NCBI GenBank assembly: GCA_964453075.1
Contig: CAYVNM010000002.1
Location: 4,279-68,278 of the forward strand
Source: an uncultured Candidatus Saccharibacteria bacterium
GTDB lineage: Bacteria > Patescibacteriota > Minisyncoccia > Phycocordibacterales > DATDWN01
Reading direction: 5' to 3'
DNA length: 64,000 nt
The position numbers and the translations under genes are program-made. Shown here in pieces: positions 3,981 through 62,881 of this stretch (positions are counted from its first letter, which is position 1; each line of letters begins with the position of its first letter). The notes below the pieces were generated by a model. That model was not told the DNA's origin. It worked only from the letters and a program-made list of their open reading frames with translations, and searched no databases.

Positions 3981-4829
3981 TTAATTGAATAAACTCAAAA
4001 ACTCACCCAATCCCATAACATCTATACGCAACATAAAAACGATCATTATTGCAATGATTAAAAATGGAGCAAATGGAATTTCAGTTTTCATTCCTATCTT
4101 TGTATCATTACTTATTTTGCTATGAATTAAGAGGATAATACTCCACAAAGCCCCGAGCCAAAAAGCCAGTACTACGGAGCCCACACCAAAAACAAACCCA
4201 GACATTGCACCTATTCCAAAAACCAATTTTGCATCACCAAATCCGATCCATCTTCCACCAGACACCAGCCATAATAAAGCAAAAGGTATAAACAAAATAA
4301 ATGGTGCAGATAAATCAAACAAATCTACAGGTCCAAGTGAAAAATCCTTACAGTAAACAAAAATAAATAATTTCAAAAAGCTCAAAAAAATAAAAGTATA
4401 TACTAAGGTGTTTGGTATTATTTTATGTCGTATATCATAAAGCATCACCACTATCAACAAACTGAAAACAAAAGCGTAATAAATAAAGAATAAAACTGAA
4501 TAAATCAGTCCGTGTTCAAAGGCACCATATATTGGCCACAAGGCAACTTGTCTCATTGCTATCGCCAAAAAAACGAGACCAGTCAATAATTCAACTATTG
4601 GATATTGTATGGAAATACCGTTTTTACAAGAACGACATCTGCCTTTTAGAAAAAAATAACTTAAAATGGGTACTAATTCATACCACTCTAGTTCTTTGTC
4701 ACAAGAAAAACACCTAGATCTGCCTTTTGTAATAGACATACCTGTATTAAAACGGAAAGCTATTACATTTAGAAAACTACCTATTAAAGTACCAAAAACA
4801 AATATGTAAAAAAAATTTAGAGGATTCAT
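3981..4829 (-). CDS. pilD: Prepilin peptidase (A24 family) PilD.
   Basis: N-terminal CxxC...CxxC zinc knuckle (CFSCDKEL...CRSCKNG), polytopic membrane protein, and the GFGDAKL catalytic Asp motif. Sits immediately downstream of the pilins. Confidence 0.85.
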
Positions 4830-15684: not shown

Positions 15685-15771
15685 GGACAGATGAGTGAGT
15701 GGTTGAAACTAGCGGTTTACTAAACCGCCGTACCCTAACAGGTACCGTGGGTTCGAATCCCACTCTGTCCG
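15685..15771 (+). tRNA. Type II (long variable arm, Ser-like D-loop) tRNA whose 7-nt anticodon loop reads TTACTAA, i.e. apparent anticodon ACU.
   Basis: Acceptor GGACAGA/TCTGTCC. D-loop GAGTGGTTGAA. Anticodon stem GCGGT/ACCGC with loop TTACTAA. Variable arm GTACC-CTAACA-GGTAC. T-arm GTGGG-TTCGAAT-CCCAC. Confidence 0.6.
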
Positions 15772-15823
15772 CTAAAATTTGGAATCAGGTGTATAATAAA
15801 AACATACAAGCTAACAAAAAATT

Positions 15824-19019: not shown

Positions 19020-19301
19020 TGGACAACCTCCTATACCAGGATACTAAAAACTTAGATTAATACAAGTATTATAGTTAAACCAGAGCCTACGAGACTCTGC
19101 TGAGAGTGAACCATATCGTCACGAGTTTTAAAAAGCCGACACTTAAGAATCTCGAAACTTACAGTTTCTGTACACCTGTTCTGTTTTTTACTTCGTAAAC
19201 TCGTAAAAAACTATCACAGGTTTTCGAGTCCTGACACAGAGTCTCCCAGACTCTGCTGAGGGTAAACACGTAAAAAAGCACCTTACGTGCTTTTTTTCGT
19301 G

Positions 19302-19375
19302 TCCGCCCTCCAGGACTCGAACCTGGGACCCCAGAGGTATAAGCTCTGTGCTCTAACCAACTGAGCTAAGGGCGG
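19302..19375 (-). tRNA. tRNA-Ile(UAU) (AUA decoder).
   Basis: Minus-strand sequence CCGCCCT-TA-GCTC-AGTTGGTTA-GAGC-A-CAGAG-CTTATAC-CTCTG-GGGTC-CCAGG-TTCGAGT-CCTGG-AGGGCGG-A. The anticodon loop CTTATAC gives UAU. Terminator hairpin lies immediately downstream (19273-19300). Confidence 0.7.
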
Positions 19376-19652: not shown

Positions 19653-21608
19653 CTATTCTTGGTGTTCGATGTCTAATTTTTTCTTTGGAACAATACCGTT
19701 GGCAACCAAAAGTGTTTCAAACTCCGCTCGTTCTATTGTTTCTGTTTCTATAAGTCTTTTTGCTATTGCATCCAAAAGTTTTTTGTTTTCTGAAATAACT
19801 TTCTCTGCTTTTTCACGTGCTTCTTTCATTATACGACTAACTTCTGCATCTATATCTGCAGCAACTTTCTCTGAAAATTCTTTTTCCTCAACACCTCTTC
19901 CAAATAAAACTTTCCCACCCTGTCCTTCAAGAGCAACCGGACCTAGTGTTTCTGACATTCCATATTTTGTGACCATGTCTCGTGCCAGAGCTGTTGAAAC
20001 CTGCAGATCATTTGATGGGCCGGTGGTCAAATCATCAAATAGCATTTTTTCTGTTACATATCCTCCAAGAGAAACCGCGATATCATCCAGGAATTCTTTT
20101 TTAGATTGTAACTTTGTATCCTCTAAAGGAAGATGCAGAACATAGCCAGCCGCACGACCGCGAGATATTATCGATATCTTGTGAACAGGATCAGCATAAG
20201 GCAGAATTGATGCAAGCACAGCATGTCCTGCTTCATGGTAGGCTGTTATTTCCTTTTCCTTTGTTGAAAGAATGTGACTTTTTCTTTCTGGTCCTAGCAT
20301 TACCTTTTCTATTGAACGTATAAGATCGTATTGAGAAACTTTTGTACGATTTTCACGTGCAGCCAAAATTGCACCTTCATTCATAAGAGAATAAAGATCG
20401 GCTCCAGAAAATCCCGGGGTCCTCTCCGCTATTACTTTCAAGTTTACATCTTCTGCAAAGGGTTTCTTTGTACTGTGTACTATCAAAATATCCTCTCTGT
20501 CTTTGCGATCTGGTAGATCCAAGGTCACACGTCTATCAAACCTTCCTGGGCGAAGGAGAGCAGGATCTAAAACATCCGGTCTGTTTGTGGCAGCCATAAC
20601 AATTACCTTCTCATTTGGCTCAAAACCATCCATCTCAACCAAAATTTGATTGAGGGTTTGTTCTCTCTCATCATTTCCACCACCAGCCCCAACACCCCTC
20701 ACTCTTCCAACTGCATCTATTTCATCAACAAAAATAATAGCCGGCGAGTTTCTCTTGGCCATCATAAATAGATCACGAACTCTTGATGCACCAACTCCAA
20801 CAAACATCTCCACAAACTCTGACCCCGAAATTGAGAAAAATGCCACACTAGCTTCTCCAGCCACAGCACGAGCAAGTAATGTTTTACCTGTACCAGGAGC
20901 ACCCATCAATAAAATACCTTTTGGTATACGTGCTCCTATATCAAGAAACTTTTTTGGATTTTTCAAAAAATCCACAATCTCCGCCAGTTCTTCTTTTGCT
21001 TCTTTGCAACCAGCCACATCCTTGAATGTCACTCTCTGATTTTTATCATTTGGATCTATCATTCTTGCTTTAGACTGTCCAAAAGTCATAGCTTGCATTC
21101 CAGCACCACGCATTTGTCTGGAAATAAACCAAATAAATACTAAAATAAATAGTATTGGAAAAATTATAGGCATCAAATTTAGAAACCAAAAACCCAAACC
21201 ATTTTCTCTCTTTATATCTATTGTGATTTTAGAAATCTCTTCTTTTGTAACACCATAATTAACTAGTGTTTGTAATAATGCCTCTCCTTCTTCCTTTTTA
21301 CCAGTTTTTTTGTCTCCACTCTTATATTCAACATCCAAAGTATCCCCTTTCACAATAATAGACTTCACTAAATCTGACTTTATATCGGAAGATATCTGAG
21401 AAATAGGAATTTCAACAGCCTTCTCGGAAGTCCTGTCTGTAATCAAAGAATAAATGGTAGATAAAATTATAAATATAATCAGAATAGAGGCTATATAACT
21501 TATTATAGACCCTCCTTCTGGAGTTTTTCCCCCATTATCCCTTCTTTTTATTATTGGTTTTTGTTTTTCTGGTGATTTTGAGGTCTCCATAGTAGCCCCA
21601 GTATACAT
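19653..21608 (-). CDS. ftsH: ATP-dependent zinc metalloprotease FtsH.
   Basis: AAA+ Walker [22 protein letters not shown], and a zinc-binding HEAGHAV motif. N-terminal TM helices. Confidence 0.9.
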
Positions 21609-21752
21609 CCCAAAAGAGTTTTAGCAAACAAATATTCCCCCCTCTAGAAAATGTTGTGGTGTTACCTATTATAACGCCCCATCCCTACAATGAAAAACTC
21701 TAACGGGACAGGTAAAATAAGTAAAATAAAAGTGTGTTATAATCAGAAAATA

Positions 21753-39182: not shown

Positions 39183-39374
39183 ATTTTAATTTGTCCAAAA
39201 CAAAAACCACATTGTTAGTGGTACTTGACGCTTCTAATACCGCAAACAAGAATGTATAAAGCTCATAGCCTTATGTGGCGTTTATACTATACAAAACACC
39301 CAATAATGTCAACAGATACGATGAAGGGCGACCACATTGGTCGCCCCCGTTAGATCCAACTATCACTAATTGGA

Positions 39375-58807: not shown

Positions 58808-60559
58808 TTAAAATATGTCCACTATTCGGAGGCGGAGTTCTGGGAAATTACGAAATTGTGACTTTTCGAGAGTAGCAACTAAATTTATACTGTCCCCCAC
58901 ACCGAGAGGCACCATAAATTTGTCTGGTGTTGAAAAAAAAGCGATAGCTGTGACATCAGATCCTTTTGAGTTTCGGAATTTTAATTCCAAATGATTTTGT
59001 TCTTTGCCAAAAAGTTTTACGTTACTTATTTTTATATTTTCAAAAAGAAAAAGTGGTTTTGGATTATCTAAACCAAAAGGAGCAAATTTCTCTATTAGTC
59101 TATATGTATCCCAACTGACTTCATCCAAGGATAACTTTTTATCTACCAGGATATCTTCTATTAATTTATTCTCCTTCACCATTTCTAAAAAAGCTTCGTT
59201 CAACCTGTCCTCAAGTGTATGAATGTTTTCCTGCATAACAGAAAATCCACCTGCACCTTTGTGTCCACCATAGTCCACAAAAACATCTTTGACCTTTTCC
59301 ATGAGACAAACAACATCTGTGTCTCCACCGGCGCGACACGAACCTTTTATGATTGTACTTCCATTACTCCCTTCCCTTCCCCAGAAAAAAACTGGACGAT
59401 TGTGCTCATCAGAGAAACTGTTTGCAACGAGTCCTAAGAGACTAGGCTTCCATTCTGGATTTCCAAAAACTAAAACATTTTTCATTGTATCTCCTCTTTC
59501 TTCAATTCTTTTTTTTATCTCTTTGACCATACTTCCCACCAAACCTTTTCTCTCATCATTTTTATTATTCAAATGCTCAGCCAAAACTCCGGCTGACACT
59601 TCATCCGTAGTAGACATCAGAGAAAACGCGTCATGAGGAATACCCATTCTAGATGCTGCATTGATACGAGGGGTGATCATGAAAGCAATGTCATCCTCTG
59701 TTGCTGTTTGTTGGTTTATTTTAAGTAATGAAAAAAGTTTCTGCAGTCCAACTCGTGGACTTTTCTGCAAAACTTTTAATCCGTAAAAAGACAGGACTCT
59801 GTTCTCCCCAACGAGCGGTACCATATCAGAAAGAGTAGCGAGCCCCACCATATCGAGTAACCATTTTTCCTGACCTTCCTTCCAATTAAATTTTTCTGCA
59901 AAGTTTTTGGATTTTATTATTGCTTGTACAACTTTAAAAATAACCCCAGCACCACATAACATTTTTTCTGGATAATCACATCCTTTTTGTTTTGGATTTA
60001 TTATGGCAAATGCTTTTGGTAATTTTTTTCCGGGAATATGATGATCGGTGATTATAACATCAATACCAAAACTATTGGCCAGATCAACTTGTGTAACATC
60101 AGTAATTCCACAATCAATAGTAATGATTAGTTTCACATTTTGAGAATTTAAATTCTCTATCGCTTCGTCATTCAAACCAAAACCCTCTTCGTTACGTAGC
60201 GGAATATAATTTACAAAATTATTGAAATTTATTTTTTTAAAGAAGTCGTGCAAAACAACAGCACCTGGAATTCCATCTGCATCATAATCACTATATATTC
60301 CAATTTTTTCATTTTCATTTATTGCCTTCAAGATTCTATTCACAACTTTTTTCATGTCCTTCAAAAGATAAGGGTCGTGAAGATGTAACAAATAATCAGG
60401 GTTGAGAAACTGTTCAGAACTCTCTATATCACTTATTCCCCGAGCACATAACATAGACCTTACAAGCGGATGATAAGGTTTCAAAGCCTCATCAACGTTC
60501 TGTGTAACAGGATTTCGTAAGGCATATTTTTTCATCCCGTTAGAGATAGGTCTCGCCAT
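58808..60559 (-). CDS. recJ: Single-stranded-DNA-specific exonuclease RecJ.
   Basis: DHH family motifs (DYDADG, ITDHH, GGHKGAGG). The start may be the second ATG (MKKYALRN). Confidence 0.85.
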   Translation of the reverse strand: MARPISNGMKKYALRNPVTQNVDEALKPYHPLVRSMLCARGISDIESSEQFLNPDYLLHLHDPYLLKDMKKVVNRILKAINENEKIGIYSDYDADGIPGAVVLHDFFKKINFNNFVNYIPLRNEEGFGLNDEAIENLNSQNVKLIITIDCGITDVTQVDLANSFGIDVIITDHHIPGKKLPKAFAIINPKQKGCDYPEKMLCGAGVIFKVVQAIIKSKNFAEKFNWKEGQEKWLLDMVGLATLSDMVPLVGENRVLSFYGLKVLQKSPRVGLQKLFSLLKINQQTATEDDIAFMITPRINAASRMGIPHDAFSLMSTTDEVSAGVLAEHLNNKNDERKGLVGSMVKEIKKRIEERGDTMKNVLVFGNPEWKPSLLGLVANSFSDEHNRPVFFWGREGSNGSTIIKGSCRAGGDTDVVCLMEKVKDVFVDYGGHKGAGGFSVMQENIHTLEDRLNEAFLEMVKENKLIEDILVDKKLSLDEVSWDTYRLIEKFAPFGLDNPKPLFLFENIKISNVKLFGKEQNHLELKFRNSKGSDVTAIAFFSTPDKFMVPLGVGDSINLVATLEKSQFRNFPELRLRIVDIF

Positions 60560-60779
60560 AGTTCGTACAATGATTACTACCGAAATTAATTTATAATATT
60601 ATAATTACCACTTTGTTATTTCCCGTGAATCTCTAACGGGATTCATTTCATTAGTGTAACACACTAATATAGACATAAATAACAACAAATATGATAAAAT
60701 ATTGTCTATGGATCCCGTTAGAAGTCTCAGTGACTCTGATCACGGATTGCAACTTTTATAAACATTTTAATTCAATATT

Positions 60780-61196
60780 ATGTTAACAAACACTGATACT
60801 TCTAACGGGACAAGCAATTGTATATTTTGCAAAATAGTGAAAGGAGATCTTCCTTCACATCGGGTTTATGAGGATGATAATTTTTTGGCATTTCTAGATA
60901 TCAACCCTGAGTCTCCTGGACACACTTTAGTTATACCGAAAGAACACTACCGCTGGGTATGGGATGTTCCAAATGCCGGAGAGTATTTTGAAGTTACCAA
61001 GAAAATTGCACTGGCACAGAAAAAAGCTTTCAACACTGATTTGGTTATTTCTAGGGTTGTAGGAGAGGAAGTTCACCATGCACACATCTGGGTATTCCCT
61101 GCTTCTTTCAACAAAGGAGAATTTGAAAAGACGGCAGGTGACAAAAAAGACTTCGCTGGAAATGCAGAAAAAATAAAAAAGGAATTGCAAAACTAA
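60780..61196 (+). CDS. HIT-family (histidine triad) hydrolase.
   Basis: CIFCKIV...PESPGHTLVIPKEHY...HHAHIWVFP. Confidence 0.8.
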   Translation: MLTNTDTSNGTSNCIFCKIVKGDLPSHRVYEDDNFLAFLDINPESPGHTLVIPKEHYRWVWDVPNAGEYFEVTKKIALAQKKAFNTDLVISRVVGEEVHHAHIWVFPASFNKGEFEKTAGDKKDFAGNAEKIKKELQN

Positions 61197-61951
61197 ATTG
61201 ACTCAACTAGTTTTATTATTTCAATAAAATCTTTTGCTCTTAAACTTTCTCGTCCAACTAAGAGGCCCGAAACATTTCCATCACGAACAAGCGAGTCTGC
61301 GTTGACCCTATCAACATCTCCTCCATAAAGAATTTTCATGCTATCTGAAAAAGTTCCACACAAATCTTTCAAAACTTTTTTAATAAAAATAGAAGTCTCA
61401 AGTAGGTCCCTTGGGCTCATGGACTCCCTCGCTCCGATAGCCCACAAAGGTTCGTAAGCAATAATAACTTTGTCTAACATTTTTTTTGGAACATCTTTGA
61501 GTCCAGACACAATTTGCTGTTTTATGAAATTATAAAAATCTCCATTTTGATCTCTCATCTCCTCCCCTACACAAAGTATGGCCGTCATACCACCACCAAC
61601 TACTGCTCTAACTTTTTTATTTATCAACTCATCACTCTCTCCCATTTTTCTTCTCTCTGAATGTCCGACAATCACATAGTCAACTTTGAAATCTGATAGC
61701 TCCGTGTAGCTCACTTCACCAGTGAAAGGTCCTTGTGACTCATAGTTTGCATTTTGAGCACCCAGAAAAAAATTAGAATCTGAAAGAGAAGTGAGGGGTG
61801 GTAGAAAAACAAAAGGAGGACAAACAACCACATCTGTTTTTTTCAGTTCTCGTGTTGCTCTCTTTACACTCTGCGCTAGTTTTTTTGCTTCATCCAAACT
61901 TTGTGGGTTCATCTTCCAATTTCCCACAACAAGCTTTTTAGATTTCTTCAT
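61193..61951 (-). CDS. tpiA: Triosephosphate isomerase.
   Basis: GNWKMN, IVGHSERR, and AYEPLWAIG catalytic motifs. Confidence 0.85.
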   Translation of the reverse strand: MKKSKKLVVGNWKMNPQSLDEAKKLAQSVKRATRELKKTDVVVCPPFVFLPPLTSLSDSNFFLGAQNANYESQGPFTGEVSYTELSDFKVDYVIVGHSERRKMGESDELINKKVRAVVGGGMTAILCVGEEMRDQNGDFYNFIKQQIVSGLKDVPKKMLDKVIIAYEPLWAIGARESMSPRDLLETSIFIKKVLKDLCGTFSDSMKILYGGDVDRVNADSLVRDGNVSGLLVGRESLRAKDFIEIIKLVESI

Positions 61952-62201
61952 CCCGTTAGAAATAGGAAAGCTTTTTGAAAAACCTTTCCATAGTTACTTA
62001 ATAATAAATGTAAATGATTATGTTTCCCGTTATAACCAGCATCTCTCACAAAATAACAAAATGATTTCTAACGGGACAAGTCCTTACAATTATATCACAA
62101 CAGTTTTTATACGAAAAAACCCGATACAGAGAATCTGTATCGAGTGTGTAGGTAGGGTGCCGAGGCACCCTACCTTGGATGTACTACCCACTGCCCAGGA
62201 A

Positions 62202-62630
62202 CTAGCAAGCGGGCTTGCGAACCCCGAGAAAACGATCGTCCTTGTACCAGCTACCTCTCCACACACCAAGCCCTCGCAAAGAGGAGCAGAACTTGCTGAG
62301 ATATGCCACACAAAGGTCAGTGTGGTCCCAGCAAAATGAGCCCAAAGCGACAATCACGAATTCTCGCTGGATGTGGGGATACTTCGACCCAAAATCCAGA
62401 AGTTCGTGGATGGTTGCCGGTCGGAATCCCAACCTGTCTATCTCCGAGATAGCCTCACTGCGCGAGATGAACCTGTTGAGGTGTATGAGCTCGGCGCTCA
62501 CTTGCACTTCGCCAGTTCCCGTCTTGGGGAAATTCGCCTCGGTGATGCGAAAGTCAACCTTATCGTAATTTCCAGCCGCAACCATGTCGGCCACGGTAAG
62601 ATTGTGGTTAACAACGAGTTCGTACACCAT
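62202..62630 (-). CDS. GC-rich gene B (142 aa, unknown).
   Basis: Extended -10 TGTATAAT, SD AAGGAGatataccATG, and a double-hairpin terminator at 62100-62200. The 5' region is homologous to that of gene A. Confidence 0.5.
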   Translation of the reverse strand: MVYELVVNHNLTVADMVAAGNYDKVDFRITEANFPKTGTGEVQVSAELIHLNRFISRSEAISEIDRLGFRPATIHELLDFGSKYPHIQREFVIVALGSFCWDHTDLCVAYLSKFCSSLRGLGVWRGSWYKDDRFLGVRKPAC

Positions 62631-62768
62631 GGTATATCTCCTTGGCTCTGATAGCCGAAGTTGTTGTCAAACTGTTCTGAGTACTATTATACACCTAAAT
62701 AGATAGAATGTCAAGGATTTTATGGTAAAAATGGCAAAAAAGACCTAAAATAGGCCATTTTGCTAAAA

Positions 62769-62881
62769 CTTCCAAATTTGGATGAAATCCGACGTGAGAA
62801 ATTAAAAAGGCGAAGAGCCTTACTGTCGTAAGGTGATGAGCATTTTTAATTTGGGAACGAGGAGTTCGCCAAATTTGGAAG
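62769..62881. repeat. Intergenic repeat element R3 (immediately 3' of the stop of the large secreted-protein gene).
   Basis: cttccaaatttgg...gccttactgtcgtaaggtgatgagcattttt...gagttcgccaaatttggaag. Terminal IR CCAAATTTGG and an internal CCTTAC-TGTC-GTAAGG hairpin as in R2. Confidence 0.6.

Follow-up and report, generated by a model that had tools for sequence, protein, structure and literature searches.

Palindromic insertions at translation start codons of an uncultured Candidatus Saccharibacteria bacterium and their likeness to miniature transposable elements

Three inverted-repeat pairs at recJ, a HIT-family gene and tpiA

What are the inverted repeats that accompany the starts of recJ, a HIT-family gene and tpiA in an uncultured Candidatus Saccharibacteria bacterium, and why are they found at start codons? 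The question arises from a stretch of 64,000 nucleotides (positions 4,279 to 68,278 of contig CAYVNM010000002.1, assembly GCA_964453075.1), referred to below as the window, in which three CCCGTTAGA…TCTAACGGG pairs, termed E1, E2 and E3, lie at recJ (58808-60535, minus strand), the HIT-family gene (60780-61196, plus strand) and tpiA (61193-61951, minus strand), the identity of each gene being confirmed by Pfam. A first-pass annotation had proposed a cis-regulatory RNA switch or an invertible promoter. We conclude instead that the three pairs are very probably copies of a non-coding, palindromic transposable element of about 100-125 bp, which resembles MITEs (miniature transposable elements that end in inverted repeats) and occupies a start-codon niche. 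This reading is directly supported by insertion polymorphism, target duplication, covarying arms, start-codon placement and wide distribution.

Exact copies of CCCGTTAGA occur eight times on the two strands of the window, where shuffled sequences lead to an expectation of 0.20 and reached eight in 0 of 100 trials. The three pairs exist as annotated, with arms longer than the 10-11 bp first given: each closing helix comprises at least 13 bp once three covarying positions and the terminal T…A pair are counted. The helix arms are ATCCCGTTAGAGAT and ATCTCTAACGGGAT in E1, CCCGTTAGAAAT and ATTTCTAACGGG in E3, and CCCGTTAGAAGT…ACTTCTAACGGG in E2, where pairing extends to at least 17 bp with one bulge. 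Predicted RNA folds are more stable than those of shuffled sequences (z = -3.8, -6.2 and -4.5 for E1, E2 and E3, respectively). The features are as follows.

60535-60641, minus strand: element E1, 107 bp, at the recJ start; arms 60536-60544 and 60632-60640, termini T60535 and A60641
60531-60534, no strand: gene-proximal copy of the 4 bp duplicated at E1, reading TTCA on the plus strand and TGAA in the recJ sense
60642-60645, no strand: distal copy of the 4 bp duplicated at E1, which together with 60646 and 60641 makes up the old start ATGAAT (ATG 60646-60644, minus strand)
60713-60810, plus strand: element E2, 98 bp, at the HIT start; arms 60714-60722 and 60801-60809
61951-62076, minus strand: element E3, 126 bp, at the tpiA start; arms 61952-61960 and 62067-62075
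60653-60661, minus strand: extended -10-like box TGTTACACT, 6 nt 5' of the distal recJ ATG, the same in the element-free relative; a putative leaderless recJ promoter
60692-60700, plus strand: putative extended -10-like box TGATAAAAT, 7 nt 5' of the distal HIT ATG (60708-60710)
62089-62097, minus strand: putative extended -10-like box TGATATAAT, 5' of E3, homologous to TGGTACAAT of the relatives, which lies 7 nt from their tpiA ATG
21581-21708, minus strand: partial copy 5' of ftsH (ftsH/smpB intergenic region), with an intact 5' arm (21707-21699), a CAGG-type flank and the ACTATGGAGACCT module, the 3' arm being lost; the ATG in this module (21590-21588) is a candidate ftsH start
39346-39354, plus strand: solo arm CCCGTTAGA beside a GC-rich hairpin, without partner arm

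The last base of the element is also the first base of the gene at two of the three sites: base 60535 is the A of the recJ ATG (60535-60533) and base 61951 the A of the tpiA ATG (61951-61949), both on the minus strand, so that the annotated junctions ...TCTAACGGG-ATG hold for both genes. E3 carries a proximal duplication copy TTCA at 61947-61950 and an atypical distal flank, CTTG-T (62080-62076). In E2, the distal flank is canonical (ATGGA-T, with TGGA at 60709-60712) and the proximal flank is atypical (A-CAAG, 60810-60814). The sole in-frame ATG of the HIT gene (60780) falls within E2, and the claim that an arm occupies codons 7-10 of this gene holds only if that ATG is the start. A small open reading frame (ORF) noted at 62061 is not credible as a gene, since its approximately 31 codons overlap the intrinsic terminator (62145-62119) of the upstream gene.

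The recJ and tpiA units had been called homologous over their whole length. E1 and E3 do have in common their arms, an internal ACGGGAAA and an ACTATGG…CCTAT module, but interior similarity does not exceed background. Likewise, the nested TCCCGT/ACGGGA hairpin of the first-pass annotation is present in E1 and E3 and is not a family feature, as an internal ACGGG/CCCGT occurs in 24 of 137 family members, compared to about 10.5 expected.

By its TpiA homologues, the window falls into a Zambryskibacteria-like lineage of Parcubacteria. Comparison with syntenic tpiA-HIT-recJ loci of four relatives (L121-L124, with TpiA identities of 96%, 93%, 78% and 75%) revealed that the motif is missing from all four loci. 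At recJ, the empty site of L121 reads TGTTACACT-AATGAA-ATGAAAAAATAC (empty site ...AATGAAATGAAAAAATAC; empty allele ATGAAAAAAT), while the filled site of the window reads TGTTACACT-AATGAA-ATGAA-T[CCCG…CGGG]A-TGAA-AAAATAT. The junction thus consists of a T…A-ended element and a clean 4-bp duplication of TGAA; apart from it, the window and L121 do not differ over the 70 bp that separate HIT from recJ. At tpiA and HIT, one flank is canonical and the other carries, in place of the duplicate, an equal-length stretch ending in CTTG-Y. On these alignments, E1, E2 and E3 are insertions. A duplication of 6 bp was considered and rejected, because the sixth base differs at the recent recJ insertion and ATG…GTG pairs are numerous. 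The odd flanks of E2 and E3 might have come from an inversion between the two, which was also rejected, as the gene order is the same as in the relatives.

The same comparisons bear on the proposed invertible promoter, in which a site-specific recombinase would flip the AT-rich segment and thereby switch the flanking genes on and off. The inverted repeats do enclose AT-rich DNA with -10-like hexamers, and within the family the interior is found facing either way with respect to the gene (32 versus 4 copies). The polymorphism among relatives, however, is one of insertion or absence with target duplication, and the boxes that most resemble promoters are located beyond the repeats and are kept in relatives that lack the element. 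In two further same-species assemblies, which are 99.7-100% identical, all three copies recur with unchanged orientation; the three assemblies are colinear and contain no inverted allele, which is a limited test, as is the Pfam search of ten of the larger ORFs in the window, in which no recombinase was found. Since the targets are, moreover, housekeeping genes, we regard a flipping cassette as an almost negligible prospect.

The intergenic region between HIT and recJ also carries other palindromic elements in the relatives (L122:1356-1550; L123:4265-4430; L124:5128-5312) and is a hotspot for palindromic insertions. Two of these, in L122, have arms such as CCCG(A)TAGTAGAA / TTCTACTACCGGG and abut the HIT start codon; the palindrome of L123 and L124 has arms of 18-39 nt. 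In one of the same-species assemblies (L125:3893-5547), the recJ gene is split into two called ORFs (312 and 239 aa); that assembly shows a single gap relative to the window, and the split is therefore attributed to a frameshift or an assembly error.

The element family across genomes

The family was collected by scanning a single genome of each species for pairs of arms spaced 77-107 nt, and the family counts given here rest on the resulting loci, of which there are at least 120; family statistics were computed on 136 or 137 copies. Nearly all loci belong to metagenome-assembled genomes (MAGs) of Patescibacteria, Omnitrophota, Planctomycetota and Desulfobacterota, which are not the taxa favored by chance matching. 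The flanking 4-mers (positions -5 to -2 versus +2 to +5) are identical in 90 of 136 copies and differ by one mismatch in 10 more. Per-position identity of the flanks amounts to 0.84, 0.74, 0.76 and 0.80 in this core and drops to about 0.5 immediately beyond it, and the target consensus is T-N-N-A (TGAA/TTCA, TAAA/TTTA, TGGA/TCCA, TGAG/CTCA).

Each end consists of (T/C)CCCGTTAGA followed by three variable bases that pair with the opposite end. The nine arm positions are invariant because the search pattern fixed them. The terminal pair, which is nearly always complementary, consists of UA in 71 copies and of CG in another 57. The three extension positions are paired in about 95% of copies (unpaired in 5-7 of 136) and are occupied by at least 17 distinct triplets, with changes on both sides in 52-54 sequences at the three extension pairs and in 52-59 over the four variable pairs. 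Paired cells make up 88% in the structure, as opposed to 33-46% in the control with the partner slid. Compensatory changes are therefore found in the closing helix, at the three extension positions and at the terminal pair; a strand test comparing G-U with A-C mismatches in this helix (4 versus 1) had too few cases to be informative.

The helix ends beyond 13 bp, and the interiors are at background similarity (median global identity 0.55, maximum 0.78). Arm-to-arm length varies between 78 and 144 bp across the family and between 98 and 126 bp for the three copies of the window, with no coding capacity, and minimal hairpins of 27-29 nt that consist of arms only occur as well. Just within one arm, a second hairpin of the form YAC-GG(N5-7)-loop-(N5-7)CC-T was found locally in 23 of 46 oriented copies and with long-range pairing in about a dozen more. 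In 32 copies this inner hairpin lies next to the gene, and in 4 it lies at the opposite end.

Several individual loci deserve separate mention. Two copies in L052 look alike along their length, as judged by eye. In a Spirochaetia MAG (L095:432-538), arms with a 12-bp helix enclose, in place of AT-rich filler, what appears by eye to be a complete tRNA gene. Tandem or nested copies with one common duplicated target (…CGGG-ATTCAT-CCCG…) exist at L030:7674-7895, L082:6534-6677 and L049:3170-3273, as would be expected if every insertion recreates a usable target.

A subset of copies exhibits the one-sided junction arm-R-CAAG (equivalent to CTTG-Y-arm). It occurs in the window at 62076-62080, 60810-60814 and 21708-21712 and beyond it in L034, L047, L057, L065, L095, L107 and L114; besides E2 and E3, about 10 arms carry it. 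By eye, the CUUGY sequence could pair with the opposite RUGAA/RUAAA flank in about 8 of 10 cases, provided that G-U pairs are used. If real, this pairing would extend the helix over the start codon, and would do so in RNA alone.

A paired, covarying helix at gene starts would also be displayed by leader RNAs that, as a family, regulate in cis, be it as riboswitch, thermometer or protein-binding switch, and whose arms alternately occlude or free the start codon on a signal. Consistent with this idea, the arms pair as a long-range helix in the predicted fold, with the A and U of the start codon lying in its base, as the first-pass annotation had supposed; the internal ACGGGA of E1 and E3 could compete for the 5' arm, and the flanks, read by eye, suggest for E3 and several further copies that CUUGY and RUGAA can form a helix if G-U pairs are admitted. 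The orthologous recJ, HIT and tpiA leaders of close relatives, however, lack the element, which largely refutes the idea. The alternative hairpin is not shared by the family, whose conserved core is limited to the closing helix; interiors at background similarity leave no ligand pocket; the downstream genes have no shared function; and Rfam searches at gathering and permissive thresholds returned only chance microRNA and snoRNA matches. A regulatory leader is consequently a very unlikely explanation.

Start codons, transcription and translation

In 72 of 137 copies, the base following the arm opens the ATG, GTG or TTG of an ORF of at least 60-80 codons, compared to 1.5% for random positions in the same loci, which bears out the annotated link between the arms, as a non-random family, and gene starts. 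This abutment was found for 55 of 84 copies in loci of the candidate phyla radiation (CPR) and for 7 of 38 in others; TAAA duplications and C…G termini prevail among the latter. Of the copies that survive in Patescibacteria, the majority are located in A|TGRA, i.e., on the start codon. Only 2.5-4.5% of the non-coding target-type sites in the window lie in the start-codon register. Target sequence alone therefore does not account for this placement, which reflects either that start codons are targeted or that insertions there are selected for. Indeed, the rare off-consensus duplications (TATG, CATG, ATGG) overlap an ATG nonetheless.

The geometry of the insertion accounts for the fate of the codon. 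As the duplicated 4-mer corresponds to ORF positions +2 to +5, the original ATG is kept in the upstream copy (ATGAAT, ATGGAT, ATGAGT). The first base of the downstream copy is supplied by the element, which explains why pairs such as ATGAAC…GTGAAC accompany C…G elements. Together, the 3' arm and the start codon read TC-TAA-CGGG-ATG-A, with a TAA in one wrong frame and an ATGA-overlapping TGA in the other, and the frame of the gene itself is open through the 3' arm (S-N-G). The 71 downstream proteins scanned contain 90 Pfam families, among them ATP synthase, topoisomerase I, release factor, SecDF, PGK, ThyX and type II secretion protein F; these often essential genes without common function do not constitute a regulon.

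The translational context of the host is relevant to this placement. Motifs resembling a Shine-Dalgarno (SD) site precede 2 of 63 genes in the window, one of them the foreign GC-rich gene described below. TAnnnT boxes show a sharp peak exactly 6 nt 5' of the ATG (11 genes), and in L121 TGnTAnnnT is found 6-7 nt 5' of the ATG of recJ, HIT and tpiA alike. The near absence of SD sites together with the -10 peak at 6 nt suggests that leaderless transcripts and SD-independent internal initiation are normal in this Parcubacteria lineage.

We propose the following course of events for an element of the MITE-like kind. Insertion duplicates 4 bp of the target (T-N-N-A), leaving the old ATG upstream with its putative promoter, and the terminal purine of the element together with the duplicated TG creates a new ATG or GTG directly against the 3' arm. 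Transcription from the old ATG would then include the element as a 5' leader, which would fold on itself into a helix of at least 13 bp, and this self-pairing would insulate the coding region by holding the approximately 100 inserted bases apart from it. In the predicted fold, the rebuilt ATG is located at the base of the helix and is followed by an A-rich, unstructured sequence. Ribosomes might reach the rebuilt codon by SD-independent initiation, the norm in an SD-poor and leaderless-rich genome. Alternatively, they might load at the old ATG, translate a short upstream ORF (uORF), stop at the TAA or TGA of the arm and re-initiate. Mobility mediated by a transposase, the transcription start sites and the route of translation are what we infer from these sequence patterns.

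The uORF starting at the old ATG (M-N/D/S-P-V-R…) is stop-free up to the stops of the 3' arm in 19 of 60 copies, compared to 4.6 per 60 for shuffled interiors and 6 and 7 per 60 for the other two sense frames; these frame controls were restricted to element interiors, since the arms hold stops. The encoded peptides are unrelated and show no conservation past MNPVR. In the window, the internal uORF of E3 (ATGGAAAGG…TTCTAA) stops at the arm TAA, 4 nt 5' of the tpiA ATG, and the E1 uORF from the old ATG ends early (MNPVRDSREITKW); an in-frame ATG at 60559 within E1 could lengthen RecJ by 8 residues. The frame bias of the uORFs and the gene-side hairpin suggest selection at the level of the transcript and the ribosome, which would act through either termination-reinitiation or plain insulation of the insert by its self-pairing.

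A perfect helix of 13-14 bp that stops exactly at the start codon could also serve RNA removal. In this intron-like scenario, the helix would juxtapose the duplicated ends, and a host nuclease such as RNase III, with or without a ligase, would cut at the helix base and restore a leaderless mRNA that begins with the rebuilt AUG. The host's reliance on leaderless mRNAs is compatible with it, exact removal of E2 (96 nt) leaves ATG GAT ACA AGC AAT TGT with the HIT frame kept, and transcribed Correia elements of Neisseria are RNase III substrates. The helix is, however, shorter than typical RNase III substrates, element lengths are unconstrained, being spread across 0, 1 and 2 modulo 3, and the frame-specific openness of the uORFs speaks for ribosomes traversing the element. 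On balance, removal of the element from the RNA appears very unlikely.

The GC-rich stretch mentioned above (62105-62760, minus strand) has a GC content of 50-58%, compared to about 36% locally, and looks like a horizontally acquired cassette. Its 142-aa ORF (62202-62630) lacks a Pfam match and has a canonical TTGACA-17-TATAAT promoter together with an AAGGAG Shine-Dalgarno site and an intrinsic terminator (62145-62119); besides this ORF, a single other SD-led gene was found in the window. An RNA gene at 62.1-62.7 kb was considered and rejected, as this stretch is a protein-coding cassette. Its terminator end is also present beside tpiA in L121, and the stretch is missing there in L123 and L124; L122 is uninformative because only 87 nt are available 5' of its tpiA. 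A separate small repeat family, the short palindrome GGATTTCATCCAAATTTGGAAGTTTT, is located 5' of tpiA in the window (about 62770-62800) and in two relatives (L122:5-35; L124:3915-3945). Elsewhere in the window, ARAGORN identified a tRNA-Ser with anticodon ACT (15685-15772) and a tRNA-Ile with anticodon TAT (19301-19375), which are unusual and may stem from modification-dependent decoding or miscalls.

Relation to known elements and significance

In bacteria, MITEs such as Correia/NEMIS, ERIC/IRU, RUP and Chunjie are non-coding elements of approximately 100-235 bp (178-235 bp in the case of Chunjie; PMC10969869) with terminal inverted repeats and a short target duplication. They insert next to genes, are co-transcribed with them, fold into hairpins and vary in presence among strains, and the elements described here resemble them in all these respects. 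The differences concern the end sequence and the duplication, which is a 4-bp T-N-N-A here and TA there. In addition, about 10 bp are conserved per end along with three covarying positions, interiors are nearly unique to each copy, the family spans several phyla, and most copies sit exactly on a start codon, which they rebuild. A 2024 review of prokaryotic MITEs makes no mention of start codons or leaderless genes (PMC10969869), and our literature search revealed no precedent for the motif, for MITEs in CPR bacteria, for start-codon MITEs or for leaderless genes in Patescibacteria. The type of element is therefore ordinary; what is unusual is the start-codon niche, the rebuilt codon, the built-in stops and an end of 9-10 bp shared across phyla.

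As to the mobilizing enzyme, DDE transposons of the piggyBac/IS1380 type provide a lead. They generate 4-bp T..A duplications (TTAA for piggyBac) and have CC(C)…TAGA ends, CCCTAGAAAG in piggyBac and CCTAGATT in ISEcp1, whereas the element here ends in (Y)CCCGTTAGA. Set beside these features, the family exhibits the 4-bp duplication and ends of Y+CCCG; it differs by an extra Y/R base between duplication and CCC and by a T-N-N-A target that is not strictly TTAA. Low copy number and diverged copies would fit precise cut-and-paste movement of the piggyBac/IS1380 kind. Integron attC sites were also considered and rejected by inspection, as the GTT…AAC order is reversed relative to R''/R' and attC insertion proceeds without target duplication.

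Palindromic mobile inserts tolerated within expressed genes by way of translation are known from the Rickettsia palindromic elements (RPEs), the byp elements of Magnusiomyces mitochondria and T4 gene 60. RPEs are translated in frame as protein segments, and byp elements are skipped by elongating ribosomes; in the byp elements and T4 gene 60, the codons on either side of the insert are identical and serve for take-off and landing. In contrast to RPE and byp, the insert described here is located at the initiation codon and not in frame. Split ribosome-binding sites (T4 genes 38 and 25) and uORF termination-reinitiation offer a parallel in that a hairpin or uORF ending at the start lets initiation signals span the intervening RNA. 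These are fixed, single-gene features rather than a mobile family, and for the family such a mechanism is suggested by sequence statistics.

A number of observations weigh against the MITE-like interpretation. A search of the window, of 0.9 Mb of related loci and of viral contigs detected neither an autonomous copy nor a transposase whose ends match. The Pfam search of the ten larger ORFs returned no transposase, arms lying 0.4-4 kb apart with matching duplications turned out to be adjacent small copies, and lone arms occurred inside long ORFs; the viral scan yielded three GC-rich matches without canonical termini or duplication that were judged unrelated. E2 and E3 each have one non-duplicated flank (…CTTG-Y / R-CAAG…), which simple cut-and-paste does not explain. 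The interiors of E1, E2 and E3 are unrelated even though all three were inserted after the split from the 96%-identical relative, and neither they nor most other pairs show the likeness over full length that is typical of MITE copies within a genome. Unrelated interiors of recent insertions would fit a cut-and-paste relocation of old copies. The uORF enrichment is weaker against antisense-frame controls, with 7-16 of 60 open (P ~0.001). Finally, start sites, folding and the start codon in use are predicted.

A bolder proposal, which we put forward tentatively and with more doubt than confidence, is that of a palindromic transposon family spanning phyla and specialized for sites of translation initiation. 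The start would be rebuilt from the terminal purine of the element and the duplicated TG, the TAA and TGA of the arm would close the wrong frames, and ribosomes loaded at the old start, at the 5' end of the mRNA, would re-initiate after the uORF. The CUUGY-flanked subset may additionally clamp the start codon. The element would then be adapted to, and perhaps dependent on, the SD-less and leaderless initiation of Patescibacteria.

If the interpretation as a start-codon element is true, it describes mobile DNA whose safe harbor is the start codon itself. It would explain how tiny, gene-dense CPR genomes can carry a transposon without loss of essential genes such as those for ATP synthase, topoisomerase I, release factor, SecDF, tpiA or recJ. 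For annotation, it poses a systematic hazard, as start codons are duplicated, false small ORFs arise and N-termini are spuriously extended (for example from the ATGs at 60559 and 60780). A core of 9 bp, kept across phyla, points to a mobilizing enzyme, and in lineages beyond the reach of culture the insertions would amount to a natural experiment on initiation that is SD-independent or leaderless.

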